Assembly (NCBI GenBank): GCA_038062745.1
Contig: JBBTWO010000007.1
Location: 1 to 55,991, forward strand
Direction of reading: 5' to 3'
DNA length: 55,991 nucleotides
From: Patescibacteria group bacterium
GTDB lineage: Bacteria > Patescibacteriota > Microgenomatia > UBA8517
Shown here: positions 1,044-41,413 of the stretch, one piece after another
How positions within the stretch are numbered: position 1 is the first letter of the stretch
Layout: every line of letters begins with the position of its first letter
The notes under the pieces: model-generated
What the model was told of the DNA's origin: nothing
Database searches by the model: none
Seen by the model: the letters and a program-made list of their open reading frames with translations, nothing else
Made by a program: the position numbers and the translations under genes

Positions 1044-2153
1044 ATGAAAGTACAAGTATTAAAGGCTGATTTTGCAAAGATACTTTCACTTGCTTGCCGA
1101 TTTGTTTCCAATAGAGCCCAACTACCCATACTTGGTAATTTAATTCTTTCAGCAAAAGGCAACTGCCTAACAGTAATGTCAACAAACTTGGAAATTTCAG
1201 TTGTTGCCAAATTGGGAGCAAAAGTAACTACCGAGGGAGAGTTGGGAGTTCCTGCAAGAACAATAGTCGACATTGTTAGTAATTTAGGTAATGGTCCAGT
1301 GAACCTTGAATCCCAAGAGGAGCAATTACTTATAACTACTGACAGTTTTGAAGGAAAAGTTTCTGGCATTAACACGTCTGATTTCCCCAAGCTTCCTCAA
1401 ACGGTTGAAAAAGGCATTAAAATTCTTGCCCGTGATTTGGCACTTGGATTATCGAAAGTTTCTTTTTCAACCTCCATGGATGAAACCAGGCCAATACTGA
1501 CTGGGGTGTTGTTTTTGTTTAACGGAACCAAACTTTCCTTAGTAGCTTCTGATGGATTTAGATTATCCAAATTTGAATTAACTTTAAAAGAATCTCAACC
1601 CGAAATGAAAATTGTTATTCCTAAGTCAGCAATTAATGAACTTATTAAATTGGCAGGGGAGTATGGTCAAGAGTTTGTTGTGGATATTAGACAGGAAGAA
1701 AACCAAGTTGTTTTTGGTATTGGGGATGTAGTTTTTTCAACTAGAACTTTGGAGGGGGAGTTTCCTAATTTTGAAAAAATTATTCCAGCAAATTCATTAG
1801 TAAAAGTTAATGTTGATAAAGAGGAATTCAGCAGAAGTATTAAATTAGCAGCTGTTTTTGCCAGAGAAGCTTCCAATATTGCTAAAATGAAATTGTTAGA
1901 AAAGGGAGTGGAGATAAGTGCAGAGAGTCAGAAAAGTGGAAATCAAAAAACTGTCGTAGAAGCAAAAATTGAAGGCTTAAGTGGTGACTTTGAAATTATT
2001 TTTAACTACAGATTCTTAGAAGAATATGTTGCTTTAGTTGATGGGGGAGTAGTAGACATCGGTTTTAATGAAACTAATAGTCCTGGAGTATTTCACGACC
2101 TTACACACCCTAATTTTCTACATTTGATCATGCCAGTAAAGATTCAAGGTTAA
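1044..2153 (+). CDS. dnaN: DNA polymerase III beta sliding clamp
   Basis: 369-aa ORF directly after dnaA. It has the typical beta-clamp opening (MKVQVLKADFAKILSLACRFVSNRAQLPILGNLIL), three-domain length, and motifs such as DETRPILTGVLF and SDGFRLS. Confidence 0.93.
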   Translation: MKVQVLKADFAKILSLACRFVSNRAQLPILGNLILSAKGNCLTVMSTNLEISVVAKLGAKVTTEGELGVPARTIVDIVSNLGNGPVNLESQEEQLLITTDSFEGKVSGINTSDFPKLPQTVEKGIKILARDLALGLSKVSFSTSMDETRPILTGVLFLFNGTKLSLVASDGFRLSKFELTLKESQPEMKIVIPKSAINELIKLAGEYGQEFVVDIRQEENQVVFGIGDVVFSTRTLEGEFPNFEKIIPANSLVKVNVDKEEFSRSIKLAAVFAREASNIAKMKLLEKGVEISAESQKSGNQKTVVEAKIEGLSGDFEIIFNYRFLEEYVALVDGGVVDIGFNETNSPGVFHDLTHPNFLHLIMPVKIQG

Positions 2154-2797
2154 TTAGGAAAAATAAATTGAATCCCAATGGTGTCTGGAACATTTAAAGC
2201 TTTAACTTTATTTTGAATTTCTTTTTGTAGTACATCGTAATTTGTAGCCTTTGTTTTTATTCGAGCTCTAATTTTGTTTATTTCACTGTCGTAGACTAAA
2301 ACATATTGAGGGGTATCTATTGGAAAACTTCTTAACCAAGGTTTTTGTAGATACTCTTGATCTATTGATTGAGAATATTGAAGATCAAGAAAGGTTTGAA
2401 GCTTTGCTTGTTCATCTGGTGTTAATTGAGAAGAAGTTGAGGTTTTAAAGCTAGATTCTGATATTTTAATATCGTTATTGAAAACAATCATTTTATATTG
2501 TGTACCCACTTGTAATGGTTCGTTTGGAGTTATTGAAATGATACTTCCATTAATTGATTTTTGAAATTCAAACTCTGGTTCAAACTCAACTTTTACCTGT
2601 TTTTCAATGTCTACACCAGTGGTTGAGGACGTTTCTATTGAAATTGTTGGAAAAATACTGATCTGTTCAGATAAATTGATGGGGTTGATTGCTATAATTT
2701 TTATGTTTGATGTTTTTCTAGTAAGAAAATAAGCACCAATTGCAATTAAAAGTATAAATATGACAATTAGGACTGGGATGTAAATTTTCTTTTTCAT
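2150..2797 (-). CDS. Membrane-anchored hypothetical protein, last gene of the VirB4 operon
   Basis: 215-aa ORF with one N-terminal TM helix (IYIPVLIVIFILLIAIGAYFL) and a soluble remainder. Its start overlaps the stop of the upstream 904-aa gene by 4 nt. Its stop overlaps the dnaN stop (convergent). No recognisable motif. Confidence 0.6.
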   Translation of the reverse strand: MKKKIYIPVLIVIFILLIAIGAYFLTRKTSNIKIIAINPINLSEQISIFPTISIETSSTTGVDIEKQVKVEFEPEFEFQKSINGSIISITPNEPLQVGTQYKMIVFNNDIKISESSFKTSTSSQLTPDEQAKLQTFLDLQYSQSIDQEYLQKPWLRSFPIDTPQYVLVYDSEINKIRARIKTKATNYDVLQKEIQNKVKALNVPDTIGIQFIFPN

Positions 2798-5508
2798 TCT
2801 GCTCCTGGTGGTGGTGCTGTTTGTTGTTGATTACATTCTAATGGAGGAACACCATATCCTACTACTCCTCCTTGAACTTTACCATTTAATGATACTGTTA
2901 ATTTTCTTGTAGTAACTGAGTTGTTTGATTCTATTATGGTTATGTAATCTTGATTTACTTCGCTAACTAAGGCAACGTGGGATAGAGGTCCAGGAGTGAA
3001 GACCCCAACACCAAAGAAAATAGCTGATCCAATCGGTATTTCTGTTGCCGGAGTATCTGCTGAAAGTAATCTATTTTGTTGTTGGAACCAGTCTCGCATC
3101 GTTACTACTGCAAACATGTTTTGTGGCATTTCAAAACCGGATTGTAAATATGTTTTCATTATTAAATCAGTACACCAGAAAAGGGTGCACGCAACCGGTC
3201 TTGTTCCTTTACACCCAGCAGGAAAATCTGTTCCACTAGCACAAGGATTTGGATAAGAAGCATAATAACTCTCACTCCAATGATCTCCGTTACAAGGTAA
3301 GCCATTGTCTAATGGATGATCGTATTGTGGTGAGTGATTGTAAAATTGCCAGAAACCTTTTTGTAATGAACTAGTTATGCTGGTTCCGTTTGTTACAACA
3401 CCTTCACAGCCACCAACTGGAGTTACTCCACCTCCAGAAATTGATGTACTTCCAGGAATAACATATGCACTGGAATTGATTATGAAAATAATTAGAGCAA
3501 TAACAAAAGGAATTGTTATGAGTGAAATTATTATTGGTTTTGCAATCTGTCTAAGTGATGTTGCAAGAGCTAAACCAAAAACACCTGCAATTCCTGCAGG
3601 AATTGCTGATAGTCCTGCCACAATACCGCCCGACCCCATAGCTGTTGCTCCAACACCGGCAGTAGCTATCAAACCCCCAGTTACAACTCCTCCTCCAAAC
3701 ATCATTAAAATGCCGCCCGCAACCATTGTGGGTCCTATGTATTTATTTTCTTGAAAGAATTTTTTAACTTTTGCCCAATTTATTTTTGAAGCTACCCAAC
3801 TGACAACCATTCCAACAGCCGCTCCAATTATTGTACCTACGACTGGTAGCAGTGCAGTGCCTGCAGCTGCCCCAGCTTCTGCAGTAACAAGTGAAGTTCC
3901 AACAACCCCCGCTTCAGTCACAATTACTCCAGTAGAAGAAGCGGTTGCGCTTGCAAGAGTGGTTGGTGTTGCCATTCCTGCGATTTCTGTTGGTAAAAAC
4001 ATACTTCCTACAGGAGAAGTAAATTGACCAAGTGAGAACATTCTGAGTGTTTGTTGAGCAGGCGAAAGAGAGGAAACAAAAGTTTGGTAAGCGGGCATGT
4101 CAAAAGCAGTAATTTTACCCGCTAATACAGCCTGCGCATTCCAGGCGCTAAACAAAGTTGGGGAATAAAATTGATATGCTACGAAAGTTCCCGCTCCAAC
4201 ACCACCAGTTGCTCCTAATGCAACTGCTGTAGTTGAACTTCCGGTGGCAAATAAATCTTTTATGCTCTGAAAAAAATTAAATATGTCAGAGTTAGTTGGG
4301 GTTTCAATTTTTACCGACTCAAATTGTTTAAGAATGTTAGATAGTGGGTTTTGACCTTTACTGAATAATTGTTTGTTTTGACTAAATATATTTTTGGCTT
4401 CTTTTGAAAAATCAATAAGTTTCTCAATATTTACTTGAGTGGAATTTGTTGATGGTGTGTCTGTTTGTTGTAGTTCCCTATTTTCTCCATATAAAACATT
4501 TGCTGCTTGTGGACCTAGTGCTGCACTAGCAAACGCATGGAAAGTATCTTCCGAAACGGCTGTTGCTAAGGCTAGGTTGGCAATCTCAGTTTCAGGATAT
4601 AATTCTGCGCTGGCTTTAAGTATCGCTACATCACTATTTTTGGGCGTAATAGCCAAAGATCCAGTAATCTTTGCTGGGTCAATGCCTGCTCTATTGAGTT
4701 CTTCCCAAAAAAATCTGTTTCTTCTTAAAATATCTCTTGCAACAATCCCAGAGATGGATCCAATTTCCTCCTGGGAATATAAATTCTTAATTATGTCAGG
4801 AATGTTTTTTGGTTGTAAAATGAAAGCGGAAACTTCTTGAACTGTCTTTTCTGAATTTTTTATTTCATTCGCTCCAATTGTGGCTAATATTCCCAAGGTT
4901 TGTTTTGTTAAGATAATTGGTTCAGGTTGTTTAACTGGCTCAAGGTAAATTTGTTTTGCGAACACCTCCCTGGCTTGTTGTCTTAATTGTTGTTTAACTA
5001 TTTCTGGTTCTTCTGGTGCAACCACAAAAATTGGTTTGTCCGCTACTTGTGTTTGCACCTGACTTTTTGCAGTAGCTTGAGCAGCCTCCATGAAAGTAGA
5101 TTGTTTTTTAGCTGCCACTTCCTGAGATCTCTTTCTCTCTTCAAGATTGGTTGTACTTCTTTGTTGAAGTTCTTCTAATCTAGTTTTATCTAGAACCGTT
5201 TGTGTTGGTTGGTCTTCTGGTTTTAAGTTGTTGAGTAAATCTCTGGATGCCTTTTCTGAGAGGGTAAATGTTTCCAAATAAACTGGAGGGATTTTGGAGT
5301 TTTTAACAGGATCAAAAAGTATATTTTTTGCTTCAGTGATTGTTTTTGTACCAGTTACTTGAAGTACATAGTTTTTAAAACCTTCTTCTGTCCAATCCAT
5401 TGAAGATGGCATAACAAGTTCTCCTGAAAATTGTGGAAGTTCTTGTCTGAAAAAATACCTAAATATTTTTTGGAGTGTTTCTAATTTTTGTATTTGATCA
5501 CCATTCAT
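2794..5508 (-). CDS. Large polytopic membrane protein with C-terminal CHAP/NlpC-P60-like cell-wall hydrolase domain (PrgK/TcpG-type T4SS hydrolase analogue)
   Basis: 904 aa. The N-terminal ~450 aa are soluble, followed by several Gly/Ala-rich TM segments (e.g. GTALLPVVGTIIGAAVGMVVSWV, MVAGGILMMFGGGVVTGGLIATAGVG, IISLITIPFVIALIIFII). The C-terminal ~190 aa contain a Cys...His arrangement like CHAP (..VACTLFWCTDLIMK.. then ..GPLSHVALVSEV..). An ATGA start/stop overlap links it to virB4. Confidence 0.6.
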   Translation of the reverse strand: MNGDQIQKLETLQKIFRYFFRQELPQFSGELVMPSSMDWTEEGFKNYVLQVTGTKTITEAKNILFDPVKNSKIPPVYLETFTLSEKASRDLLNNLKPEDQPTQTVLDKTRLEELQQRSTTNLEERKRSQEVAAKKQSTFMEAAQATAKSQVQTQVADKPIFVVAPEEPEIVKQQLRQQAREVFAKQIYLEPVKQPEPIILTKQTLGILATIGANEIKNSEKTVQEVSAFILQPKNIPDIIKNLYSQEEIGSISGIVARDILRRNRFFWEELNRAGIDPAKITGSLAITPKNSDVAILKASAELYPETEIANLALATAVSEDTFHAFASAALGPQAANVLYGENRELQQTDTPSTNSTQVNIEKLIDFSKEAKNIFSQNKQLFSKGQNPLSNILKQFESVKIETPTNSDIFNFFQSIKDLFATGSSTTAVALGATGGVGAGTFVAYQFYSPTLFSAWNAQAVLAGKITAFDMPAYQTFVSSLSPAQQTLRMFSLGQFTSPVGSMFLPTEIAGMATPTTLASATASSTGVIVTEAGVVGTSLVTAEAGAAAGTALLPVVGTIIGAAVGMVVSWVASKINWAKVKKFFQENKYIGPTMVAGGILMMFGGGVVTGGLIATAGVGATAMGSGGIVAGLSAIPAGIAGVFGLALATSLRQIAKPIIISLITIPFVIALIIFIINSSAYVIPGSTSISGGGVTPVGGCEGVVTNGTSITSSLQKGFWQFYNHSPQYDHPLDNGLPCNGDHWSESYYASYPNPCASGTDFPAGCKGTRPVACTLFWCTDLIMKTYLQSGFEMPQNMFAVVTMRDWFQQQNRLLSADTPATEIPIGSAIFFGVGVFTPGPLSHVALVSEVNQDYITIIESNNSVTTRKLTVSLNGKVQGGVVGYGVPPLECNQQQTAPPPGAE

Positions 5509-7355
5509 ATCTTTGCAGTTCCTGTGTTTGTAACATTGGCCATACCCGTTATGTCAGCTGGTGAATAGGTGGTGTTCTGCAAATTAGCCTGCTGGTTGGT
5601 TAATCCCTCTGTGTCTCTTGGGTTAGTTGTGACAAGAGCATATTCTTCCGGAGAAGCAACAACCCGTATTGGTGCATGATGAGGGCCAGCAAAGAATATT
5701 CCCTCACCAACATTAGCAGCCAGCAAAAGCTGTTTTTCTCCCTGGGAAAGATAGAAAGTTTCGCCAATTTTATCAATTGCGGCTGGCGACTGTTTCAGCA
5801 GGATCTTCATGGCAGAATTGGTGACGATTGCCTTGCCAATATCTTGAGAAAGAAAATCCTCAACGTCCTGAGTAATGGTTGTTAAACCAAGATAATATTT
5901 TCTGGCTCGTTTGACTACTGCCCAAAGGAATTGGGCTGAATCTTTATATTTCATCATGTGCCACGCCTCATCAACAATTAGTAGTCTTCTTTTAATATCC
6001 TTTTTAATTCTCGTCCAGATATAGTCAAGGATGATAAACATAGCAATTGGCCGCATAGCATCATCCAAGTCGCGCACACTAAAAATAGTAAATGGGTTGT
6101 TAAGATTAATATTGGTTTGCTTGTCAAATATGCCCACATAGCTTCCCTTTACAAATTTTTCAATTCTGGCTGCTAAATCAAGTGCGTCGGTAACCTCCAT
6201 ACCAATAAGGGATTTATAAAGATCCTCCATAAGTGGTGGTTCTTTGGCTTGAGTTGCTGGATCTTGGGTAATGCCTTTGGCTCGGTAAGCATTAATTAAG
6301 GCTCGGTCAAGCAGGGCTTCTTGGGTGGCGTTTAGCTCGCCCATGATGACTTTAAACAAAGAATGTAGGGAAAGAATTTTCTGGCCCAACTGATTCTCAC
6401 CTTCCTCATAAATTTGAGCCAAATCAAATGGGTTTATTTTTGACTGTGAACTAAAGGAAAAGTTAATATTTTCTCCTCCAACTGCTGCGCAAAGTTTTCC
6501 ATATTCGTTTTCTGGGTCAATAATAATAACTTCTGTGCCCAACATTAGGCTTCTTACAGCTTCTAATTTTACTGTAAAGCTCTTACCAGAGCCTGCTGTG
6601 GCAAGTACCAAACAGTTTGAATTCTCCAAACTGAATCTGTCAAAAATAATAAACGATTCGTTTTGGGAATTCATGCCGTACAAAACTCCCGTGTCACTTG
6701 ATAACTCTGCCGATGTAAATGGAAAAGTTGTAGCCAGGGAAGTTGTATCCATGTTGCGAGTTATGGAGAGCTTATCTGTGCCAAATGGAGCAGCTGACAA
6801 AAATCCCTGCTCTTGATCCAAGGTTGCTGATTTGGCAATTACCAACAGCGAGCCGAGGGTAGATTCTACTTGGCGGGTTACATCATTTAATTCTTCTGGC
6901 GAGTTGGCAGGAATTGTAACGTAGAAACTAAACTCAAAAAACCTTTCAGACCCTTTTACAAGTTGTTCCTGTAAAACCCTTGCGTCTTCAAGTTTTGCTT
7001 GAGTGGAAGGGTTGATTACTTTCCCTCTTTGAATGTCAGTTGAGATTTCGGCCTCCATTTCGGCAATTTTGCGGCGTAAATCATCAAGAACAGATTTGCC
7101 TTCAACGGGATAAATATAAAAGGAAATATCCAATGAGTGATCAAAATTAATAATTGGCTCAAGCCAACCCGGAGAAACAAATCTTGGATAACCGCCGATA
7201 AAAAGCGTTCTTAAATATACGTCGTCTATTTTTATATAATCAAAATCTACCTCAAATGATTTTGGGGCAAGAACATCTTGTAGTCCTAATCCCTCATTTT
7301 GTAGCGAATGGATGGGATTGATGATTGCTGGTTTTTCTTTTTTTGTGTTGTCCAT
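5505..7355 (-). CDS. virB4: VirB4/TrbE/PrgJ-family type IV secretion ATPase
   Basis: 616 aa. Walker A is LVLATAGSGKSFTVK and Walker B is RRLLIVDEAWHMMK, followed by LGLTTITQDVEDF. The N-terminal region (IKIDDVYLRTLFIGGYPRFVSPGWLEPIINFDHSLDISFYIYP) is typical of Gram-positive-type VirB4 proteins. Confidence 0.9.
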   Translation of the reverse strand: MDNTKKEKPAIINPIHSLQNEGLGLQDVLAPKSFEVDFDYIKIDDVYLRTLFIGGYPRFVSPGWLEPIINFDHSLDISFYIYPVEGKSVLDDLRRKIAEMEAEISTDIQRGKVINPSTQAKLEDARVLQEQLVKGSERFFEFSFYVTIPANSPEELNDVTRQVESTLGSLLVIAKSATLDQEQGFLSAAPFGTDKLSITRNMDTTSLATTFPFTSAELSSDTGVLYGMNSQNESFIIFDRFSLENSNCLVLATAGSGKSFTVKLEAVRSLMLGTEVIIIDPENEYGKLCAAVGGENINFSFSSQSKINPFDLAQIYEEGENQLGQKILSLHSLFKVIMGELNATQEALLDRALINAYRAKGITQDPATQAKEPPLMEDLYKSLIGMEVTDALDLAARIEKFVKGSYVGIFDKQTNINLNNPFTIFSVRDLDDAMRPIAMFIILDYIWTRIKKDIKRRLLIVDEAWHMMKYKDSAQFLWAVVKRARKYYLGLTTITQDVEDFLSQDIGKAIVTNSAMKILLKQSPAAIDKIGETFYLSQGEKQLLLAANVGEGIFFAGPHHAPIRVVASPEEYALVTTNPRDTEGLTNQQANLQNTTYSPADITGMANVTNTGTAKI

Positions 7356-7361
7356 AGTAAT

Positions 7362-8081: not shown

Positions 8082-8089
8082 GTGTTTTT

Positions 8090-9118: not shown

Positions 9119-9322
9119 ATAGGCAGTCTCTACAGGTAGTCTCTCTATCAATGTTATATCGTGAAGGCTCTTTAGCAACTTATAATTATTTTCACAAGAA
9201 ATTTTGATCAATATAGAGTATATTTATTTTAGCTACGTTCAAGGAATTTGGTGAAACTCCCAAACTGTGCCGCAACTGTAAAGTCAGAAAACTAGTAGCT
9301 AATTAGAAAGCCCGAGCAGGAA

Positions 9323-10273: not shown

Positions 10274-10300
10274 ACACAATTTGCATAAAAATGGTAAAAT

Positions 10301-12235: not shown

Positions 12236-12236
12236 T

Positions 12237-13808: not shown

Positions 13809-13833
13809 TACACTAGATTCTAGCAGAAATTAA

Positions 13834-16365
13834 TTATTTAGTACAAACACTATTTATTCCAGCCAGCCATTTTTGAGCCATTGAGTCATATCCATTTGCC
13901 GTTGGGTGTGCTCCGTCTGACATTAATTCAATACCTGTCATTGGGACTAATTTTACATAACTGCTGAACTCAGAATCGTTGGCAATGTCTGCTAGTCCTT
14001 GATTATATTGGTCAACTGCTGCTTGATAAGTAGTGTAATTGATGGTTGCAAGCAAAATTTTAGCGTTTGGTGCTGCTGCGTGTGCTGAGGTAATGATTTG
14101 CCGCATATTTTGTAAATTTTGTTCAACACCAATGAAGGTGAGTTTGTTTGTTCCTATATCCATTAAAACAATGTTTGGCTGAACAGTTTTTACAAATCCC
14201 GTAACGCGGGTCAAGAAAAAGTCTGTTCCTTGAGCTCCATAGCCTGCGTGATCATCGTCTGTGGCTGGGGGGTCATATTTTTGGGTGCTGCTGCCAACAA
14301 GATTAAACTTATAGCTCGCTGAGGTAAGTGCAGTGTATAGGAATTGTCGATAGCCGGGGTATGTGTCGGCATTGTCGTTAAAAGTTGTTCCAACGGTTAT
14401 AGAGTCTCCCAGTGGCATAATGTTTAATTCTTCAGAACAAGATGTTATTCCTGGTTCTGGAGTTTTGTTTTGGTAGGTTGACGGCAAAGTAGTGATGCTT
14501 CCCGGTTCACCAGACGCTTTCTCGGCACTCATTATTGTTAATTCTGATGGGGCTGTTTGTTTGCCGTTTGCTGAATGTTGACCAATGTTTGGATTTTCAT
14601 CTGCGCTGTCGCCAAACATGGTCAAAATAAATTCTCCAGCCGTATCTTCAACTGATGACAAAGGAATATTTTGGAACAATTTAGCATTAATAGTTTGAAT
14701 ATTGAATATTTGCCTAAATGCTTGGACTAAATCCAATCCAAAAATGTCAGGAATTATACTTGGATCTCCAAATCTCCAAGCAGTAAGGTCGTCTTGATAT
14801 TTTTGTGGATCGTTTTTATATTCATCACTATTCATATCTGGAGGAGAAGGATCAAATTTTGATAAATTCTGGCTTGTGTTGCCAAAATAACCTTCGCCTT
14901 CAATCTTGTAGTCGTGTACCTCTTTACCAACTGTTTCAGGGCTTGTTGCTAAAGTTCCTCTGGCCTCAGAATTTTGCATATCCCAAGGTAGCAGTTTTCT
15001 TATTGGTCCTGAAAAATTAATAACACGATCAATTTGTTCAATTGAAGCGTCAATTAACGGCTCAGCAACTTGAGGAACACCTGTTAAGTAGTAAGACAGA
15101 TATTCATTTACTTTTTGTTCGTCGGTTAAATTACCTGTTTGGGTATTTCCGAGTATGCCTAAATTTGCATCCTTTAGATCGGCAGTTAAGTCAAAGCTCG
15201 AACTTCGGTAGCAGGTTACCCCTAATCCATTTGGATCTTTATCACAAATAGTATGATCATATTGTTGACCTGCAGCATTGGTAACTTTTAGTCCGTCGTA
15301 TTTACCGTTATCTCCATATGGGTCAAAGGCTTCTGTTCCCACAGGTTGTAATTGTGGACCACAAGAATAGGTAATGTATTTTTGATAATCAGGTGCCTCT
15401 CTGTCCAGTGCCTTTGGTATTGACTGAGGAATTAATGGATCACAGGCATTTGCAGGATATGGTCTTAAGGGATGAAATTCAGGATCTGCTGTTTGATCAC
15501 AAGCAATGGTGTCGGGAAGAAAATCTGTTAATGGTCTTTGATTGGGAAGCACTTCTCCTCCCGGCTCGGTAAAGCCCATTTCTCCCTCACAGGTGGTGCT
15601 GGTAATTTGAGCATGATCCCACCAATCTTTACCAATACGTGGATCAATGAAACTTCCTGTATCTCGTATTGCTACTTTTACAGATCCTCCTTGAACATTT
15701 CCCAAAACAAATCCACACGGAAGGGCAAGAAGTGTTGTTCTTCCGTTTGCTTCATTCTCATTGTAAGCAGCCAAAAGTTCGTCACTAACATTAAAATCTA
15801 ATAGATGTATAGCATAACCAACTGCAATACTGTCTTGGGTTCCGTAATGAAGTGTTACGTCGGATTCTGTAGCGTATAACACTGTTACTTGGTGATTTTG
15901 ATCGTCAATTGTATAACCCGATTGTGGAACTTTGACCTCTTCACCATCTCCTGCTTGCAAAGCAACCAAAACAGTTCCCCAATTGCCGGTGTAGTCGGCT
16001 TTAATGTCGTCACCTAAGGCTCCGCCGCTCCATTGTTTGACTGTGTAAAGATTAGTAAATTGGGGATTTGGATTGCTGACTGATCCAATTAGAGTGTTGA
16101 GTTGGGGGGCTAAATTGTCAGTTGGCCCGCCAACATTTATTTTTACTAAATCCTCTGGTTCTGGAGGAAGACCAATTGTATTAGAATTTGGATATGGTGG
16201 ATTAACCTCTATATATCCATCAGGCATTCTTTTTCTGATATTTACATCAAAATCATCTTTTGCCTCTGGAGTTCTTGCAATTAAAGAAGAAGGCATGAAA
16301 ATTAAAACTAACAAGGCAAAGACTAAACCAATTTGAATTAATTTTTTAAAATTTAATTTTTTCAT
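13834..16365 (-). CDS. Large secreted protein with C-terminal SGNH/GDSL hydrolase domain
   Basis: It has an N-terminal signal/TM (IQIGLVFALLVLIFMPSSLIA). The C-terminal ~200 aa carry a GDSL block (IMPLGDSITVG), a block-III-like MDIGTN, and a DxxH block (SDGAHPTANGY). I prefer the start at ATG 16365, which shares ATGA with the upstream stop; the track start is 16380. Confidence 0.7.
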   Translation of the reverse strand: MKKLNFKKLIQIGLVFALLVLIFMPSSLIARTPEAKDDFDVNIRKRMPDGYIEVNPPYPNSNTIGLPPEPEDLVKINVGGPTDNLAPQLNTLIGSVSNPNPQFTNLYTVKQWSGGALGDDIKADYTGNWGTVLVALQAGDGEEVKVPQSGYTIDDQNHQVTVLYATESDVTLHYGTQDSIAVGYAIHLLDFNVSDELLAAYNENEANGRTTLLALPCGFVLGNVQGGSVKVAIRDTGSFIDPRIGKDWWDHAQITSTTCEGEMGFTEPGGEVLPNQRPLTDFLPDTIACDQTADPEFHPLRPYPANACDPLIPQSIPKALDREAPDYQKYITYSCGPQLQPVGTEAFDPYGDNGKYDGLKVTNAAGQQYDHTICDKDPNGLGVTCYRSSSFDLTADLKDANLGILGNTQTGNLTDEQKVNEYLSYYLTGVPQVAEPLIDASIEQIDRVINFSGPIRKLLPWDMQNSEARGTLATSPETVGKEVHDYKIEGEGYFGNTSQNLSKFDPSPPDMNSDEYKNDPQKYQDDLTAWRFGDPSIIPDIFGLDLVQAFRQIFNIQTINAKLFQNIPLSSVEDTAGEFILTMFGDSADENPNIGQHSANGKQTAPSELTIMSAEKASGEPGSITTLPSTYQNKTPEPGITSCSEELNIMPLGDSITVGTTFNDNADTYPGYRQFLYTALTSASYKFNLVGSSTQKYDPPATDDDHAGYGAQGTDFFLTRVTGFVKTVQPNIVLMDIGTNKLTFIGVEQNLQNMRQIITSAHAAAPNAKILLATINYTTYQAAVDQYNQGLADIANDSEFSSYVKLVPMTGIELMSDGAHPTANGYDSMAQKWLAGINSVCTK

Positions 16366-18764
16366 GGTGCTTGATAGCATACTTCAGGTTTGTCGGTGTC
16401 TGGATTGTCACCTAACCTTTTTGGCCAATTTGTTCCATCACAATATCCTGACCCTAAACAAACAATGTCTGCATAGCTCATGTTGTTACAATCTCCTCCT
16501 CTGCATTGTGATGATGTAAAGTGTCCTTTTGCAAAATTCTTGGTACTGATGTCGGGTGTATCCCCTCCATAATATCCACAACTGGCTACTCTTACTTCCC
16601 TTTGGGTGGTTATTTTGCCTCCTGGATATTCTCCTATTTTTGATAGTAACAACCTAGCGGCTATTTCCATTGTGTCTACCGGCCAACAGCGATTTAATTT
16701 ACCATCAATTTTTACACACTGATTTACTTCTGTCTCTGCTTTTTGGGTCTCGTCAACTGTTATGTTGTAGCCATTGTCGCTCATGGCCATGAGTCCTAAG
16801 TAAACACCAAATTTATAGCTGCAAGTATAAGGTTCACTTTCTGTATAAAAAGGCAAGGCTTCAATTCTATATATCCAATCAAGAACACCCTTCGGAACAC
16901 TGGCTGCTGCTCCGCCATTGTCGATTGAGGCTTGAAGGATGTCGTTTTGGAATTCTGTGCTTTCTGGATCTGGTGCACTACAGACTCCGGCGGGGGAGGG
17001 GGCAGGTGAGGTTCCTGGTGGAATTCCAGATGAGGTACCAGCGTTTTTTGGTCTCAAGGCTTTTTGTAAATCTTCAAGCCAATATTTTTTAAGAGATCCA
17101 ATATGGGGAACATAGAAAGATGGAGAGTTGCCATCTTCAGTTTTTAATTCTACTGGTGAATCACTCTCAGTGTTTTGAACTGCAGAAGCACTGTAAGCAA
17201 CTGAGGAGGGGATTTCATCAAATTCTTTTGTATTTATAGATGGCATAAATCGTTTGAATAAGGATTGAGATCCATTGACCATAACATCATAAATATATTC
17301 AACTAAAGGATTTTTAATATAGACTGCAGCTTTTCCTTCTGTCTGACGCTCAACTTGGGGGATAGAACCACAAGTAAATTGTCCTCCACCTTTATCTATT
17401 GGATTGGCGTGACATTGAGGATCGGTAGCGCGTTGCGAACAACAGTTCTCGGGATAGAGAGTGTCTACTCCATCGGCCAAGCAGTTCGTAGGTTTAGGGC
17501 AGGCATCATACTCGTATTTTTGGGTAAACAGAACCCGGCCAACTATTTTTGGCCCAACCAAATCATCACCTTCGTTGTTTTTTACTTCTGGAACCACACA
17601 AGCCATCTGGTCATATGGTGGGTCAGTTTGTGCTTGATATGTTTCTGCTGCAGGAACAACTTGAGCCACTACTAAAGAGGAATTGTTTGTTTCTTTATTT
17701 ACAACTGTAGTTGCATCGTCTACTCCTTGATGTTTTTCAATTTTGGTTGTAACCACACCAGGGTTGGTCAGGGATGCATTTTGATTTGACGGTGGAGCAT
17801 TATTTTTCAGGGAACTAGGTTGAGGATTAAAAATTGCCTGAGCCATAGCCGACAACGCTGCAAGTAATCTTAAGTGTGGAAACCACAGCCTGGATTCTCC
17901 TTCACCGCCAACCTCAACACCTCCCGGGCCACATCCAGCCACATTGGCATCACAAAACCAGATTGCTTGATTATTTACAACACACGCCGAACCACTACAA
18001 GGCACTGTTCCGTTATACATAACCGCTCCGGTATATAATTTTGCTTGAGTTATATCGTCTGTGTATTCTTTTCCTCCGATTAGAAATCCTTGTGCTTTTC
18101 TACTGCCTTCCGCTGGGTCTGGAAAGTCAGACATGGTTGGATTACATCTTCGATAATTGTTGCCCCAGCAAGCTAGGTATTTTCCATCGGTTGAAAACTG
18201 GCAGCCAATTTCTGCTTCGTCAGACGATCCACACAGAGGAGCCCGAACTCTATAAACACTACAAGCATCATCTTGGCTTTTGCAGTAAAGTGTATATGAA
18301 TTTCCGGGAGCGAGGCCGGCAACTGGATTGGTACATTGGGATCCACCAACAGATATTCCACTAGATGGATCTGGAAAAATATAGTCAGTTTTAACACTAT
18401 AGCCAGCGGGAGCGCTGCAGCCTGCTGGAACATAAGCGCAAGTTTGAGTTGGATCTGGTATGGGGCAACTGGTAGTTGGAATAATACAAGCTCGCCCCTC
18501 AAACTTATTGTTTGAATTAATATTAAGACATTGTTGTTGATCTGTTATCGTAGAACAATCTCCCGGCTGAGTAGTGCCTTCACATTCTGGTGGGGCATCA
18601 GGTTTTTGTACACACCCTTGGCCTGCTTGCCACCAACACCAGTAACAGCCATTAGAAGAATTACAGTCGTGTTGGGCAGTGTTAACCGCAAAGACAGTTT
18701 TTGGATTATTAAACAACAAAAAAAATCCAAGTAAAAAAAATGCAGACAGCAACATTTTATTCAT
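16362..18764 (-). CDS. Cys-rich secreted giant protein (800 aa), C-terminal region weakly lytic-transglycosylase-like
   Basis: Signal peptide is MNKMLLSAFFLLGFFLLFNNPKTVFA. I count ~39 Cys by hand, clustered in the first ~280 aa and the last ~350 aa. The C-terminal segment ..DWIYRIEALPFY..GVYLGLMAMSDNGY.. loosely recalls the SLT E...GLMQ...Y motifs (low confidence). Confidence 0.65.
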   Translation of the reverse strand: MNKMLLSAFFLLGFFLLFNNPKTVFAVNTAQHDCNSSNGCYWCWWQAGQGCVQKPDAPPECEGTTQPGDCSTITDQQQCLNINSNNKFEGRACIIPTTSCPIPDPTQTCAYVPAGCSAPAGYSVKTDYIFPDPSSGISVGGSQCTNPVAGLAPGNSYTLYCKSQDDACSVYRVRAPLCGSSDEAEIGCQFSTDGKYLACWGNNYRRCNPTMSDFPDPAEGSRKAQGFLIGGKEYTDDITQAKLYTGAVMYNGTVPCSGSACVVNNQAIWFCDANVAGCGPGGVEVGGEGESRLWFPHLRLLAALSAMAQAIFNPQPSSLKNNAPPSNQNASLTNPGVVTTKIEKHQGVDDATTVVNKETNNSSLVVAQVVPAAETYQAQTDPPYDQMACVVPEVKNNEGDDLVGPKIVGRVLFTQKYEYDACPKPTNCLADGVDTLYPENCCSQRATDPQCHANPIDKGGGQFTCGSIPQVERQTEGKAAVYIKNPLVEYIYDVMVNGSQSLFKRFMPSINTKEFDEIPSSVAYSASAVQNTESDSPVELKTEDGNSPSFYVPHIGSLKKYWLEDLQKALRPKNAGTSSGIPPGTSPAPSPAGVCSAPDPESTEFQNDILQASIDNGGAAASVPKGVLDWIYRIEALPFYTESEPYTCSYKFGVYLGLMAMSDNGYNITVDETQKAETEVNQCVKIDGKLNRCWPVDTMEIAARLLLSKIGEYPGGKITTQREVRVASCGYYGGDTPDISTKNFAKGHFTSSQCRGGDCNNMSYADIVCLGSGYCDGTNWPKRLGDNPDTDKPEVCYQAP

Positions 18765-18790
18765 GATTTATTTTACCATTAGAAGGGCAA

Positions 18791-19114
18791 TTAAGGTTGA
18801 ACGACTGTGAAGTTGAGGATTCCTGTAACACCAGTAAAATTCCCAATTAACTGGAGAATAAAATATGAAGCTACAATGAAAACCAGACCCAAAATTGCAT
18901 AAGTAATTGTTTTTTGTGCTCCTTGTGCTTTTCCTGCATCCGTGCCAGCAGTCAAAAAATTAAAACCCCCAATCAAAAGCATAATAAACAAAGCAAGTCC
19001 GGCAAAACCAACGGCAAGACCAACCACATTTGAAAAGAGTGTTTCAAAACCACCAATGGTTGCCACCCCAGTATCGTCAAAGGTAGGTATTTCTGCTGCA
19101 TGAATTTCGAACAT
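18791..19114 (-). CDS. VirB2/TrbC-like two-helix pilin paralog 8
   Basis: 107 aa with two TM helices flanking the loop NFLTAGTDAGKAQGAQKTITYAILGLV. It shares this architecture with the seven genes upstream. Confidence 0.6.
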   Translation of the reverse strand: MFEIHAAEIPTFDDTGVATIGGFETLFSNVVGLAVGFAGLALFIMLLIGGFNFLTAGTDAGKAQGAQKTITYAILGLVFIVASYFILQLIGNFTGVTGILNFTVVQP

Positions 19115-19161
19115 AGCAATAGTTTAAATTAACTTAAGGCAATAGACAACAGGAGACGAGT

Positions 19162-19530
19162 TCAAATGAAAGCTGTTGGAAGTTCAAGTGTGAATATGTC
19201 AACACCAAAGAATGCTTTAATAAGTTGAGCAATTGCCCAAGCTGAGAAGACGATAACTAAACCAACTAAAGCTGCTGTAATTTGATTTCTCGCAGATTCT
19301 GTTTGTCCTTTATCTCCTCCTGAGAGTATCCATTTAATACCACCAATAACTAACATAAAAAAGAAAACTATAGCCGCAATAACTAAAGCAAAGGTAATAA
19401 GCCCAGAAATTAAACTCGCTATTGTTAGATTTTCTGGTGAGAGAGTTTCAAAGTCATCTGTGCTAGGAACCAATTTTATATCGGTAGAAGTTTCACCTGC
19501 TGCTAATACTGTGTGAATAAGTCCGAACAT
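19162..19530 (-). CDS. VirB2/TrbC-like two-helix pilin paralog 7
   Basis: 122 aa with two TM helices and the loop WILSGGDKGQTESARNQITAALVGLVIV. Confidence 0.6.
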   Translation of the reverse strand: MFGLIHTVLAAGETSTDIKLVPSTDDFETLSPENLTIASLISGLITFALVIAAIVFFFMLVIGGIKWILSGGDKGQTESARNQITAALVGLVIVFSAWAIAQLIKAFFGVDIFTLELPTAFI

Positions 19531-19538
19531 ATGAATAA

Positions 19539-19976
19539 TTATTGTATTTTAAGAGGGCCGATGTCAATAGTCAAAATGTTGATTCCAAAGAAAGTCTCAA
19601 CAAGATTGATAATTGCAAAAGTGGAAAACAAAAGAATAATTCCAATTAATGCATTTGTAATTCTTCCACGGGCTTGCTCAACAGCCCCTTTGTCACCTCC
19701 AGAAAATATCCATTGAATTGCCCCAAGCACTACCATGAAAAAAAAGCCAATTGCACCAACAACAAAGATCCAACCAACTAAAGGAGGAAAAATGGAAGCC
19801 AAAAAACTTTCCCCACTTTTTGAACTCAGATTTTCTGGCAAAAGAGGATTTATAATTTTTTCACTTGGGTTAGTATTTTTATCTGGAGTGCAATTCTTTG
19901 CACAATCCAAGTACTGCTGGGAATTCCCAGACAAAGATTCACATTGTTGACAGCTTAAGGCGAGTAAATTAGTCAT
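19539..19976 (-). CDS. VirB2/TrbC-like two-helix pilin paralog 6 with 4-Cys N-terminal extension
   Basis: 145 aa. The N-terminus reads MTNLLALSCQQCESLSGNSQQYLDCAKNCTPD. Two TM helices follow, with the loop WIFSGGDKGAVEQARGRITNALIGIILL. Confidence 0.6.
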   Translation of the reverse strand: MTNLLALSCQQCESLSGNSQQYLDCAKNCTPDKNTNPSEKIINPLLPENLSSKSGESFLASIFPPLVGWIFVVGAIGFFFMVVLGAIQWIFSGGDKGAVEQARGRITNALIGIILLFSTFAIINLVETFFGINILTIDIGPLKIQ

Positions 19977-19977
19977 A

Positions 19978-20361
19978 CTATTTCATTCCTAGTAAATTAA
20001 TCATAAATGTGATGTTTAGGACATCTTCAATTCCAAGAATGGATCCAACTAAATCTATTAAGAATATTGCTGCTATTACAACAACCAATCCTATAATTCC
20101 AGTAGTCATTTTTTGTCTTGCTTCTGTTAGTTTTCCCTTATCCCCACCCGAAAATATTATTGCAATTGCACCAAGAAAGAATTGAATGACAAACCAAATA
20201 ATAGCAATCACAGTCATGACCCCTATGGTTGTTGATAAAACTTTAGTAAAAACACTCCCTGATGTTGAAGCCTCTTCTCCCTCAAGGCCAAGTGGTCCAA
20301 AACCTCTAAAACCACCCTCAGGGGCTAGTGGAATACTGGTTTGTGCAAGTAACTTTCTCAT
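19978..20361 (-). CDS. VirB2/TrbC-like two-helix pilin paralog 5
   Basis: 127 aa, with the loop IIFSGGDKGKLTEARQKMTTGIIGLVVV between two TM helices. A 4-nt overlap links it to the upstream gene. Confidence 0.6.
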   Translation of the reverse strand: MRKLLAQTSIPLAPEGGFRGFGPLGLEGEEASTSGSVFTKVLSTTIGVMTVIAIIWFVIQFFLGAIAIIFSGGDKGKLTEARQKMTTGIIGLVVVIAAIFLIDLVGSILGIEDVLNITFMINLLGMK

Positions 20362-20720
20362 GGTGTTAGTGTTGGAATTGCTGGATTAAGTATGAAGTCC
20401 CAACTTCCGAATATCAACCAGCCAAAGATCCCTGCCAATACATATGCCCCAGCCGCAAAAGCAAGACCCAAAGCGGTTTGCCAAATTTTTGCCCAGGCAC
20501 CCTCTATTTTTTTAGAATCGTCTCCTGCCGACAAGAAAGCATAACCTGCAAGGACAAAATTAAACAGAGAATAAATAACTGCCCCAACAATGAGGAGTTT
20601 TAATCCTAAATTCAGAAGATTTCCTATCCCAGCTCCAGTGTTGTTGGGGTCAAATTTTGACAGGGAAGCTGGTGGTGTTATTTCTCCAAATATATCTGTG
20701 TCTACTGCTAATTTATTCAT
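20358..20720 (-). CDS. VirB2/TrbC-like two-helix pilin paralog 4
   Basis: The loop is FLSAGDDSKKIEGAWAKIWQTALGLAF. I prefer the internal start MNKLAVD (ATG at 20720), which matches the MNKLAQ/MTNKLAQ N-termini of neighbouring paralogs. The track ORF (to 20756) would overlap the upstream gene by 32 nt. Confidence 0.6.
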   Translation of the reverse strand: MNKLAVDTDIFGEITPPASLSKFDPNNTGAGIGNLLNLGLKLLIVGAVIYSLFNFVLAGYAFLSAGDDSKKIEGAWAKIWQTALGLAFAAGAYVLAGIFGWLIFGSWDFILNPAIPTLTP

Positions 20721-20724
20721 ATTT

Positions 20725-21048
20725 TTAAAAACCAGGCATAGTAATAAAGGCAACACCTGTAATTATTTCTATTAATCTTATTATCCAGTATGCTGCAAAT
20801 ATTATAACAAATCCAATAACGGCTGAGGAAGCAGCTTGCTGTGCTTTTTGAGCGTCTTGCTGGTTTCCACTGCCTGCTCCTTGGATTATTTTAAAACCTG
20901 CAAAAACAAGCATAAACAAAATTATAATTCCAGCAACTACAAAGGAAATGTTAAGACCCAGAGAAATTAAATCGCCAAGGCTATTTTGGCCAGTGCTAAA
21001 AGGAGTATTAAAAGTGGTGCCAATTGGAACTTGTGCTAATTTATTCAT
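20725..21048 (-). CDS. VirB2/TrbC-like two-helix pilin paralog 3
   Basis: 107 aa with N-terminus MNKLAQVPIG and the loop IIQGAGSGNQQDAQKAQQAASSAVIGFVII between two TM helices. Confidence 0.6.
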   Translation of the reverse strand: MNKLAQVPIGTTFNTPFSTGQNSLGDLISLGLNISFVVAGIIILFMLVFAGFKIIQGAGSGNQQDAQKAQQAASSAVIGFVIIFAAYWIIRLIEIITGVAFITMPGF

Positions 21049-21051
21049 GCT

Positions 21052-21384
21052 TTAGAAAATACTAACTACACTACTTAGACCAAGTAGTTTTGCAATTATT
21101 TGAACTATAAAAAAAGCAAAAAAGACAACAATGAAACCAATAAAAGCATTTGTAAGTATATGTTGGCCTTCCTGAACTTTTTTTGGATCCCCAGCAGAGG
21201 TCATGAGTTTAAAACCACCCATTAATAGGTAAACAAGTAATGCAAAACCTGCAATAGCAAAAAGATATGGGAGCAATTCTGTAATAAGTGTTCCAATTTT
21301 TGTATTTGGGTCATACTTATAGTCAGACCCCAATCCCTTCTCTGTTATTGTTTGAAAATTTATTTGTGCTAATTTGTTTGTCAT
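21052..21384 (-). CDS. VirB2/TrbC-like two-helix pilin paralog 2
   Basis: 110 aa with N-terminus MTNKLAQINF and the loop LMTSAGDPKKVQEGQHILTNAFIGFIVV between two TM helices. Confidence 0.6.
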   Translation of the reverse strand: MTNKLAQINFQTITEKGLGSDYKYDPNTKIGTLITELLPYLFAIAGFALLVYLLMGGFKLMTSAGDPKKVQEGQHILTNAFIGFIVVFFAFFIVQIIAKLLGLSSVVSIF

Positions 21385-22043
21385 ACTCCAAATCCTGGTA
21401 TACCTAGTATATCAACACCAGTTACTTTTAGTACAAACACTGAAAATATTAGTAAAATAAGTCCGCCAATTGCAGATGTTAGCAACTCTCTTCCTGCTTG
21501 AAGTTTTTTAGGATCACCTTGGGATGTTGTGATCATAAAGCCTGCAACTAAAACTAGTATAAAAGCAATTCCTCCGCCAATACCAATAGCCCAACCCAAA
21601 ATCCAACCAGCAAACGTATTGGGGTCGTTTATTGGAATACAGCCAATTGCAGTATTAATCCCGTTACTTATATTTCCACCACAACCAACACTATCGTCAA
21701 CAGGTGCCTCTTCGTCGCCACCGCCGCTTGACTGGATAACACAACAAGTATACTCGCCTTCACACAGGCCGGCAGAGTCAATTCTTTCATTTCTTTGACA
21801 CACTGTCTCACACGTGCCCTGTGGATTTTCTGGGCAGGGAGCCCCGACTATTACAGGACCAGATACACAACAGGTTGCGCCTCTACAACCACCTCTGTTG
21901 TCAGGATGTTCAGTATCTTTGCAGCCACCCGTTCTACAAGTACCTTCAGGGACACTAGGACACGGAATAGCGTAAATGTTTTTTGGTAACAGTAGGTTAA
22001 AAATAAAAAGGAAACCCAGCAAAAAAACAAAAAATCTTTTCAT
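21381..22043 (-). CDS. Pilin-like paralog 1 with signal peptide and duplicated six-Cys ectodomain module
   Basis: 220 aa. Signal peptide is MKRFFVFLLGFLFIFNLLLPKNIYA. Two tandem modules follow: IPCPSVPEGTCRTGGCKDTEHPDNRGGCRGATCCV and APCPENPQGTCETVCQRNERIDSAGLCEGEYTCCV. The C-terminal two-helix module carries the loop MITTSQGDPKKLQAGRELLTSAIGGLILL. It is the first gene of the operon. Confidence 0.65.
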   Translation of the reverse strand: MKRFFVFLLGFLFIFNLLLPKNIYAIPCPSVPEGTCRTGGCKDTEHPDNRGGCRGATCCVSGPVIVGAPCPENPQGTCETVCQRNERIDSAGLCEGEYTCCVIQSSGGGDEEAPVDDSVGCGGNISNGINTAIGCIPINDPNTFAGWILGWAIGIGGGIAFILVLVAGFMITTSQGDPKKLQAGRELLTSAIGGLILLIFSVFVLKVTGVDILGIPGFGV

Positions 22044-38055: not shown

Positions 38056-38059
38056 AGGT

Positions 38060-41122: not shown

Positions 41123-41173
41123 TTGGAAATCATGGACCGTAAGGTTACGTGGGTTCGAATCCCACCGTCTCCG
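41091..41173 (+). tRNA. tRNA-Ser (anticodon GGA)
   Basis: Acceptor GGAGACG/CGTCTCC and anticodon arm CATGA-TTGGAAA-TCATG. It has a long variable arm, T-arm GTGGG-TTCGAAT-CCCAC and discriminator G. Confidence 0.85.
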
Positions 41174-41183
41174 CAGGTTATAG

Positions 41184-41269: not shown

Positions 41270-41297
41270 TTAACTGTCCTATATGTTTATACTATAA

Positions 41298-41384: not shown

Positions 41385-41413
41385 CATATGGTAAAATACC
41401 ATTGGACAAAATT

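Follow-up and report, generated by a model that had tools for sequence, protein, structure and literature searches.

A chromosomal type IV secretion locus beside dnaN and dnaA in a Woesebacteria-like Microgenomatia genome probably encodes a VirB4-driven contact pilus

Here we report on a type IV secretion system (T4SS) encoded at positions 2150-22043 of a 55,991-nt stretch of DNA (the window) from a Patescibacteria group bacterium of the Microgenomatia (contig JBBTWO010000007.1). With a probability of roughly 0.7, this locus is a vertically inherited chromosomal T4SS typical of Patescibacteria, here of Woesebacteria-like Microgenomatia, which derives from the MPF_FATA type, has lost its DNA-processing side and forms a contact pilus driven by the ATPase VirB4. 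Patescibacteria, which rely on host cells, account for a large part of bacterial diversity, and their T4SS was the first to be proven essential to the very bacterium that carries it. The type of locus, its missing conjugation modules and its origin-side site are already known (Wang et al. 2023; Quinonero-Coronel et al. 2025; a 2025 FEMS review), and our finding is essentially a rediscovery: the window is a clean and complete Microgenomatia example and holds no new principle. Modest additions to the published description seem to be the orthology of the pilins, a VirB6 candidate, an interchangeable hydrolase, an antisense slot, a wider conserved block and a conserved head-on orientation.

ATPase and membrane core

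Open reading frames (ORFs) of the window were assigned to families by Pfam and NCBIfam profile searches scored against curated cutoffs, and the absences reported below concern this 56-kb stretch. Relatives were obtained by scanning a genome collection with VirB4 as the query, which gave 22 loci with VirB4 identities of 56-85% (L numbers below); one of them, L023, is the Woesebacteria genome CP058602.1. The locus in the window is composed of two minus-strand gene runs, from 22043 to 12237 and from 9211 to 2150. An initial annotation of the sequence had described two codirectional minus-strand operons; the ORF map agrees, with the addition that a plus-strand gene pair (9323-10273 and 10301-12235) separates the two runs. 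The core genes are the following.

5505..7355, minus strand: VirB4 ATPase (616 amino acids, aa), the C-terminal two-thirds of a canonical VirB4
7362..8081, minus strand: TrsD-like protein (239 aa), a free-standing VirB4 N-terminal domain; TrsD NF041427, 8.7e-5
8090..9118, minus strand: PrgI/VirB3-like protein; two transmembrane helices, a linker rich in Ser, Pro and Gln, and a CarboxypepD_reg-like beta-sandwich at the C terminus
2794..5508, minus strand: polytopic CHAP protein (904 aa) with a soluble N-terminal half, a Gly-rich membrane region at about 550-680 and a C-terminal CHAP domain
2150..2797, minus strand: bitopic protein (215 aa), the last gene of the operon, with an N-terminal transmembrane helix and a weak match to the Ig-like Big_5; fast-evolving
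12237..13808, minus strand: polytopic membrane protein (523 aa), the VirB6 candidate, with a signal or anchor and about 8 transmembrane helices

In Pfam, the 616-aa protein matches P-loop_TraG (5e-30), AAA_10 (2e-10) and DUF87. It scores 405.6 bits, against a curated cutoff of 325, on NCBIfam NF045971 ("VirB4-like conjugal transfer ATPase, CD1110 family"), with a match that spans profile positions 178-735 of 752, and its second-best model is the VirB4 of the Mycoplasma integrative and conjugative element (ICE), NF045975. The best solved relative is the VirB4 C-terminal domain of PDB entry 4ag5 (3.4e-46). Both Walker motifs are intact (Walker A, ATAGSGKS, at residue 254; Walker B, LLIVDEAWHM, at about residue 458), and with these family matches the earlier assignment as a VirB4-type ATPase holds. 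Because the best models, CD1110/CTn2 and Mycoplasma ICE, are both MPF_FATA, the Gram-positive-style parts list that had been proposed is likewise supported, and the ATPase is of the monoderm (MPF_FATA) type.

The 239-aa TrsD-like ORF was missing from that parts list. It matches N-terminal positions of NF045975 (130-278) and NF045971 (30-119), and its L023 orthologue matches the TraC-like family PF26593. All of these scores are below the curated cutoffs, weak but consistent. VirB4 is split into the 239-aa TrsD-like protein and the 616-aa ATPase. The longest ORF of the PrgI-like gene (8090-9211, 373 aa) matches PrgI PF12666 with 3.1e-6 and 28.1 bits at a cutoff of 27, which, together with the two transmembrane helices, bears out its earlier naming as PrgI/VirB3-like; the C-terminal CarboxypepD_reg match has a value of 4.5e-6. 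The gene probably starts at the ATG at 9118 and not at 9211, since all relatives begin with MEQHPIPQQ.

A polytopic protein ending in a CHAP-like hydrolase had also been named, and we find the CHAP domain (PF05257, 8.9e-6) above its cutoff (26.6 versus 26 bits) with the catalytic motifs around Cys774 and His844 present. This 904-aa protein has four or more hydrophobic segments at residues 551-677. It is predicted to have a VirB1-like function at the position of Orf15/ConG plus hydrolase. The hydrolase module differs by genome: it is CHAP in the window and Peptidase_M23 in the L023 and L024 orthologues. A bitopic protein occupies the position of the 215-aa gene in all related loci and falls into two unrelated-looking subfamilies; a homologue search with the window protein returned only the query itself.

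Neither the 523-aa nor the 904-aa protein matched TrbL, VirB6 or PrgH in searches of Pfam, NCBIfam and PDB sequences, which for the 523-aa protein included a 46-sequence profile, and PDB sequence searches likewise returned nothing for the TrsD-like and PrgI-like proteins. The family of the 523-aa protein has more than 526 members, named "hypothetical", from Woesebacteria, Shapirobacteria and Microgenomates, and it has no Pfam match. An AlphaFold2 (AF2) model built from 46 homologues is all-helical, with a predicted local distance difference test score (pLDDT) of 77. In a Foldseek search of this model against the PDB, the top five matches were all chains of the R388 stalk (VirB5-VirB6), the VirB6 identity of the chains being taken from the titles of the PDB entries. 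The best match had a probability of 0.98, but an E value of 0.09 and TM-scores of 0.25/0.41. These matches are suggestive, not proof, of the 523-aa family as the VirB6 candidate for Microgenomatia. The earlier label "VirB6/TrbL-like" therefore stands as regards the polytopic topology; the family name found no support in sequence, a weak fold match being all that speaks for it.

Pilin array and secreted proteins

Upstream in the first gene run lie eight small pilin genes and two genes for large secreted proteins, and the pilin array is flanked by a divergent gene for a SpoIID-like protein.

18791..19114, minus strand: VirB2-type pilin 1; PF18895, 34.0 bits; reciprocal best hit with the collinear L023 gene, 53%
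19162..19530, minus strand: VirB2-type pilin 2; PF18895, 41.5 bits; L023 reciprocal best hit, 65%
19539..19976, minus strand: VirB2-type pilin 3, with 4 Cys in an N-terminal extension; PF18895, 31.8 bits; L023 reciprocal best hit, 49%
19978..20361, minus strand: VirB2-type pilin 4; PF18895, 21.1 bits, below cutoff; aligns with the other pilins; L023 reciprocal best hit, 54%
20358..20720, minus strand: VirB2-type pilin 5; no Pfam match; two-helix topology and alignment with the others; L023 reciprocal best hit, 58%
20725..21048, minus strand: VirB2-type pilin 6; PF18895, 32.6 bits; L023 reciprocal best hit, 54%
21052..21384, minus strand: VirB2-type pilin 7; PF18895, 47.0 bits; L023 reciprocal best hit, 46%
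21381..22043, minus strand: pilin 8, which opens the operon; PF18895, 25.9 bits, slightly under the cutoff; L023 reciprocal best hit, 70% over the pilin module
16362..18764, minus strand: Cys-rich secreted protein (800 aa, 39 Cys); no family match in Pfam or NCBIfam
13834..16380, minus strand: SGNH/GDSL protein (848 aa), secreted or anchored; C-terminal SGNH PF13472, 1.8e-12
22088..23800, plus strand: SpoIID-like protein (lytic transglycosylase family); SpoIID, 6.4e-15; signal anchor and coiled coil

Across the eight two-helix ORFs at 18791-22043, five pass the cutoff of PF18895 (T4SS_pilin), two score below it and one has no match. The count of eight VirB2/TrbC-like proteins given in the initial annotation is retained on this basis, the other three being included by subthreshold score, alignment or topology. 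Pilin 5 probably starts at MNKLA at 20720, its longest ORF extending to 20756.

All eight are one-to-one, collinear reciprocal best hits of the eight pilins of CP058602.1 (L023 3696-7043), at identities of 46-70%, whereas pilin 1 shares only 23-35% identity with its paralogues inside the window. This collinear orthology together with the low identity between paralogues indicates that the array is old, that it predates the split of these genomes and that every copy was retained, which argues against a recent amplification for (antigenic) variation. The individual retention of the pilins favors distinct structural roles, which could be those of a heteromeric pilus or of major and minor pilins. 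Pilin 8 is a candidate minor or tip pilin; it has a Sec signal peptide and a 14-Cys N-terminal domain of about 120 aa, followed by the pilin module. Several of pilins 1-7 start with M-x-N/K-K-L-A-(Q), which is followed by a hydrophilic stretch of 20-60 aa before the first hydrophobic helix.

The prior count of two very large secreted proteins is matched by the 848-aa and the 800-aa protein. In the former, the catalytic blocks of the SGNH hydrolase are present (GDS658, GTN743 and DGAH822), and its central region is conserved in relatives according to tblastn. A protein similar to the Cys-rich one is found between the pilins and the 523-aa gene in relatives with listed ORFs. Finally, the divergent pilin/SpoIID pair recurs in L023 (SpoIID, 49% identity) and L017, and the SpoIID-like neighbor is possibly a second wall-remodeling enzyme.

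Gene order, position and inheritance

All 22 VirB4-matched loci share the architecture of the locus. As established by tblastn of the window proteins against these loci, the conserved order is pilins, Cys-rich secreted protein, 523-aa polytopic protein, a variable slot, PrgI-like protein, TrsD-like protein, VirB4, polytopic protein with hydrolase and bitopic protein, and then dnaN and dnaA on the opposite strand. The latter two lie downstream in 17 of the 18 loci that have enough flank for adjacency to be judged, the exception being L017. In relatives, dnaA is followed by rnpA, yidC and khpB/jag, the canonical origin neighborhood. The corresponding features of the window are these.

2..775, plus strand: dnaA, its 5' end cut by the start of the window; frame 2 is open from base 2 to 775
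800..829, plus strand: DnaA boxes in the dnaA-dnaN spacer, with a perfect TTATCCACA at 821-829 and a one-mismatch box at 800-808
1044..2153, plus strand: dnaN (beta clamp); all three DNA_pol3_beta domains matched, 1e-25 to 6e-17

Identities of VirB4 and DnaN between the window and 16 of these loci are correlated (Pearson r = 0.85), with means of 73% for VirB4 versus 44% for DnaN. VirB4 thus codiverges with DnaN and yet is far more conserved, which points to vertical inheritance under strong constraint and not to a mobile element. Together with the dnaN/dnaA synteny in 17 of 18 loci, this corroborates the earlier view that the locus is chromosomal and core. The observation on which that view had been based is also correct: dnaN (1044-2153) and the last gene of the locus (2150-2797) are convergent and share 4 bases. 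At the other convergent end, the stops of the plus-strand 644-aa gene and the minus-strand 523-aa gene are 1 base apart (12235/12237). We found no terminator-like hairpin at either convergent end (12235/12237 and 2150-2153) and, given the near-zero spacers, the convergent transcripts may overlap. In scans for promoter and terminator consensus sequences, counts were no higher than in shuffled sequence.

The entire T4SS block is on the strand opposite to dnaA-dnaN, an orientation kept in 17 of 18 related loci. The T4SS genes would be transcribed toward the origin and head-on to replication, the origin being left of the window; GC skew is positive across most of the window. Conservation of a head-on orientation is not usual for a gene block of such size and strong conservation. 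The local cluster of DnaA boxes in the dnaA-dnaN spacer is suggestive. A third box is located inside dnaA (697-705), and window-wide the number of matches to the box, 28 versus 18 +/- 4 expected, is not significant. The dnaA fragment is 30-80% identical to the C terminus of full-length DnaA in 17 loci. We considered and rejected the ORF at 326-775 as a stand-alone DnaA domain IV protein or mini-gene, because the dnaA frame is open from base 2 and the gene is cut by the window edge.

Relatives with informative record titles are Candidatus Woesebacteria or Patescibacteria group. Many related records of metagenome-assembled genomes (MAGs; L001, L002, L004, L005, L007, L009 and others) are titled "uncultured Gammaproteobacteria" or "Pseudomonadales". 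These titles look like placeholders or mislabels, because in the same MAGs the locus is of the Patescibacteria type, VirB4 is 70-85% identical and synteny is kept.

Conjugation modules

Fixation next to dnaN-dnaA in 17 of 18 related species-level genomes and codivergence with DnaN are difficult to reconcile with a conjugative system, that is, an ICE or a chromosome-mobilizing T4SS with a type IV coupling protein (T4CP), relaxase and oriT elsewhere acting in trans. Conjugation would be consistent with the score of VirB4 on NF045971, a family of conjugal-transfer ATPases whose curated cutoff it exceeds. Moreover, most Patescibacteria genomes carry T4CP-like genes, usually far from virB4: 5,713 homologues were counted in 2,918 genomes, of which 148 were near virB4 (PMC12102498). 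In the same survey, however, relaxases were rare (103 of the 3,035 Patescibacteria genomes), and in Southlakia epibionticum the t4cp homologue was nonessential while the T4SS was essential (PMC12102498).

Within the window, none of the ORFs scanned against Pfam matched a relaxase, a VirD4/TcpA-type ATPase or a tyrosine integrase. A Walker A scan revealed no second VirB4/VirD4-like protein; the other matches were two AAA_14/DUF4143 ATPases, DnaG, a DEAD-box helicase and a LAGLIDADG protein. There was no notable oriT-like inverted repeat in or beside the locus. The previously noted lack of a VirD4-type coupling ATPase, a relaxase and an oriT-like repeat nearby is therefore upheld for the scanned ORFs and by the repeat scan. 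The accompanying statement that no integrase is present in the locus or its flanks holds for tyrosine integrases, but a large serine recombinase is encoded inside the window, 14 kb from the locus.

36138-37685: large serine recombinase (Resolvase, Recombinase and Zn_ribbon_recom), abutting tmRNA
37665-38055, minus strand: tmRNA; the recombinase ends 20 bases inside the tmRNA 3' end

This recombinase beside tmRNA could be taken as a further sign of a mobile element, with smpB on the other side of tmRNA (region 36138-38524). We found no link between it and the T4SS. The tmRNA 3' end is not repeated elsewhere and there is no att-type repeat, no direct repeats bracket the T4SS locus, and the intervening genes show partial synteny with the chromosome of another Woesebacteria genome (CP058602.1). 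On these grounds we rejected the T4SS as part of a tmRNA-integrated island with the serine recombinase. The G+C content of the locus is similar to that of the rest of the window, and neither att nor oriT-like repeats were found, both of which also speak against conjugation. Taken together, we consider a conjugative system highly improbable.

Antisense variable slot

The two plus-strand genes that split the locus occupy a slot between the genes for the 523-aa polytopic protein and the PrgI-like protein.

9323..10273, plus strand: soluble protein (316 aa) with a C-terminal Cys-pair zinc-ribbon-like motif; no family match
10301..12235, plus strand: soluble protein (644 aa); no family match, no hydrophobic segment or signal

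Among the related loci, the 316-aa protein has its sole homologue in L005 (40% identity). The 644-aa protein has 6 homologues among 5.8 billion proteins, and its AF2 model, made from a 6-sequence alignment, is unusable (pLDDT 49.9). In all 12 relatives examined, the slot contains an ORF of 600-930 aa on the strand opposite to the T4SS genes. The slot proteins form at least three groups without detectable homology and have essentially no Pfam matches, the sole trace among the relatives being one subthreshold match to DUF7748. A single family comprising the large antisense ORFs of relatives was rejected, as BLASTP gave at least three disconnected groups and hhalign probabilities were below 1%. 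The slot is at the same position in L001-L012, L016, L023 and L024, and further contents of the slot in relatives are bAvd-like, HicAB and AAA_14 genes.

A large, soluble and fast-evolving protein in 12 of 12 relatives, in at least three nonhomologous groups, is the pattern expected of host-specific effectors. The T4SS could thus be chiefly a translocator of protein effectors into a host bacterium (toxins or hydrolases, for example the slot proteins), with the pilins forming a short channel or an adhesive fiber. T4SSs that deliver effectors without a T4CP are known, namely Bordetella Ptl and Brucella VirB (PMC12857230), and protein export was suggested as an alternative by Wang et al. 2023 (PMC10633639). 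Against this, neither an effector domain nor a signal or chaperone was recognized by profile searches, and the proteins with hydrolase domains, being equipped with Sec-type signals or membrane anchors, do not need a T4SS. We regard a primary role in effector translocation as unlikely.

A contact pilus as the probable function

In VirB/Tra systems, VirB4 is required for pilus biogenesis and VirD4 is not. Given this biology, the eight pilins and the lack of a T4CP for substrate recruitment, pilus biogenesis would be the main task that VirB4 drives with ATP. The eight old pilin paralogues, one of them with a Cys-rich head, may assemble into a heteromeric pilus or tube. Judged from their domain content, the CHAP, SGNH and SpoIID-like enzymes might open the cell's own wall, the wall of the host, or both. 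The tube would cross the own wall and contact or pierce the envelope of a host bacterium. Such a contact organelle would serve an epibiotic or parasitic lifestyle and would probably be a conduit for material exchanged with the host. We infer a nonconjugative role for this locus, as others have done before (PMC10633639, PMC12102498 and PMC12857230).

Transposon sequencing identified the T4SS of Southlakia epibionticum (SEML1_0006-0019) and its pilins as essential for epibiotic growth, this species being the only one for which the requirement has been shown (Wang et al. 2023, Cell; PMC10633639). The low locus-tag numbers place these genes near the start of the genome numbering, and this T4SS has no recognizable coupling or relaxase proteins, from which the authors inferred a non-DNA role (PMC10633639). 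In a survey of 3,035 genomes (Quinonero-Coronel et al. 2025, Microb Genom; PMC12102498), VirB4 was present in 2,417, mostly as one clade nested in MPF_FATA. According to the same study, TrsD and PrgI/VirB3 homologues adjoin virB4 phylum-wide, VirB2 genes form arrays of 2-11 copies with a particularly high frequency in Microgenomatia and Saccharimonadia, dnaA and dnaN rank with the most frequent neighbors of the virB4 locus in Microgenomatia and Paceibacteria, and VirB6 is "scarce" in Microgenomatia as detected by hidden Markov models (PMC12102498). A pilus conduit is proposed in a review (PMC12857230). A 2026 preprint on OT8, the first cultivated Microgenomatia strain, describes tubular structures "that may be T4SS pili" extending into the host, together with an uptake of host RNA (bioRxiv 10.64898/2026.06.21.733656).

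Import of DNA has to be weighed against a contact pilus. The locus could be a DNA-uptake (competence) machine like Helicobacter ComB or archaeal Ced, with host or environmental DNA as a source of nucleotides. It resembles ComB in being a T4SS without T4CP or relaxase, VirB4 has a weak match to CedB (NF041017, 6.8e-15), Patescibacteria lack nucleotide synthesis (PMC10633639), and T4SS loci of the class ABY1 colocalize with comF, recG and radA (PMC12102498). The CedB match, however, has 54.7 bits against a cutoff of 700 and that to CedD 30.8 against 600, and no other Ced or Com component was recognized; in particular, the comEC, comF and dprA families were absent among the window ORFs scanned against Pfam. 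Natural transformation of Southlakia relies on type IV pili and not on the T4SS. In the passage of the review that cites Wang et al. 2023, deletion of comEC in Southlakia is described as abolishing transformation but not viability, whereas the T4SS is essential (PMC12857230). DNA uptake as the function of the locus thus appears very unlikely to us.

Several points weigh against our reading of the locus as a contact pilus. VirB2 homology comes solely from Pfam PF18895 and topology, and a profile of the eight pilins against the PDB found no solved VirB2/TraA structure. Pilins 1-7 have no classical signal peptide, a Sec-type signal being present only in pilin 8. The VirB6 assignment is weak (Foldseek E value 0.09, TM-scores 0.25-0.41), and no VirB8-like protein was identified among the proteins of the locus. 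Lastly, because the T4CP is commonly distant from virB4, absence from the window is not absence from the genome. A T4CP-like gene may be present elsewhere in the genome, and substrate translocation, not pilus assembly, could then be the main activity.

The contact pilus can be extended to a joint reading of the observations. A heteromeric tube of eight pilins with pilin 8 at the tip would pierce the host with the help of the CHAP, SGNH and SpoIID-like enzymes and import macromolecules of the host cytoplasm (RNA or nucleotides), as a T4SS working "in reverse" without a coupling protein; the slot proteins would be host-specific factors, and the 523-aa family the VirB6 that was missed by hidden Markov model surveys of Microgenomatia. 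As a whole, we consider this extension rather unlikely. The leads that we see are the fixed orthologous set of eight pilins, the VirB6 candidate for a class in which none was detected, and the conserved slot with its unrelated, fast-evolving large proteins. These leads are now testable, given the cultivated Microgenomatia strain OT8.

Comparison with known systems

The locus is most readily compared with the T4SS clade of Patescibacteria. Shared features are the MPF_FATA-type VirB4 with TrsD-like and PrgI/VirB3 proteins, a polytopic VirB6 candidate and a wall hydrolase adjoining virB4, tandem divergent VirB2-like pilins (PF18895/PF04956; 2-11 reported, eight here), the absence of a relaxase or T4CP nearby, and a chromosomal site near dnaA/dnaN as in Microgenomatia and Paceibacteria. 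The differences are details of the lineage: CHAP is fused to the polytopic protein in the window where relatives have M23, two large secreted proteins are encoded (one with SGNH) instead of one, and the antisense variable slot splits the locus. In contrast to the scarcity of VirB6 in the survey of Microgenomatia, we propose the 523-aa family as a candidate.

In the conjugative elements Tn916 and ICEBs1, genes are ordered VirB3, VirB4, polytopic protein, peptidoglycan hydrolase. The order in the window is the same, and the locus further resembles monoderm MPF_FATA conjugative T4SSs (CTn2/CD1110, pCF10 Prg, ICEBs1 Con and Tn916) in its VirB4 family, its PrgI/VirB3 and TrsD-like proteins and its lack of outer-membrane core components. 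By contrast, neither a relaxase nor a T4CP, oriT or integrase accompanies it, its VirB2-type pilins have no counterpart in MPF_FATA systems, and it is chromosomally fixed and vertically inherited, whereas MPF_FATA systems reside on a plasmid or ICE.

With the diderm VirB/Trw systems (Agrobacterium VirB and R388 Trw), the locus has in common two-helix VirB2-type pilins, VirB4-dependent pilus biogenesis as the likely activity, and the best, if weak (E 0.09), PDB folds of the 523-aa model in R388 VirB5-VirB6 stalk chains. It differs from these in that no VirB7, VirB9, VirB10, VirB11 or VirB5 was recognized in the locus, in the monoderm envelope and in the eight pilin paralogues as opposed to one major pilin. 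Similar to other T4SSs without a T4CP (Bordetella Ptl, Brucella VirB, Helicobacter ComB and archaeal Ced), the locus has no VirD4-type coupling protein, and these systems have nonconjugative roles. Their VirB4 lineages are unrelated, however, with the CedB match of the window far below the cutoff. Ptl and Brucella VirB are diderm exporters of effectors or toxins; ComB and Ced import DNA; for Patescibacteria, there is no support for DNA import as the essential role.

Flanking genes and further features of the window

The conserved block runs beyond the right edge of the locus to about 27279, in the same order as in the left pilin flank of CP058602.1. Downstream of the SpoIID-like gene, it includes three genes.

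24495..25193, plus strand: bPH_2 protein; 48% identity to the L023 neighbor
25193..25417, plus strand: 74-aa protein similar to the L023 DUF5657 gene; 51% identity to the L023 neighbor
25414..27279, plus strand: 621-aa protein with no assigned function; 25% identity to the L023 neighbor

A weak BrnT/CopG-like toxin-antitoxin pair (23797-24413) is inserted in this conserved flank in the window only. Farther to the right, the 28-37 kb region has a slightly lower G+C content, a strong BrnT/CopG pair and an AAA_14/DUF4143 ATPase, and may be a small element integrated at tmRNA, although no att repeat was detected. A LAGLIDADG homing-endonuclease-like ORF (40109-41122, plus strand) runs into the first of three tandem tRNA-Ser genes (41091-41385). 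ORFs at 41198-41923 and 41287-41670 overlap the tRNA-Ser genes and are probably spurious. The region 47923-51579 encodes an AbiEii-like nucleotidyltransferase toxin and a second AAA_14/DUF4143 ATPase, and three copies of a 30-nt direct repeat (GCTCCACCTAATGGACTA...), at 48544, 50680 and 51550, are located between uncharacterized genes.

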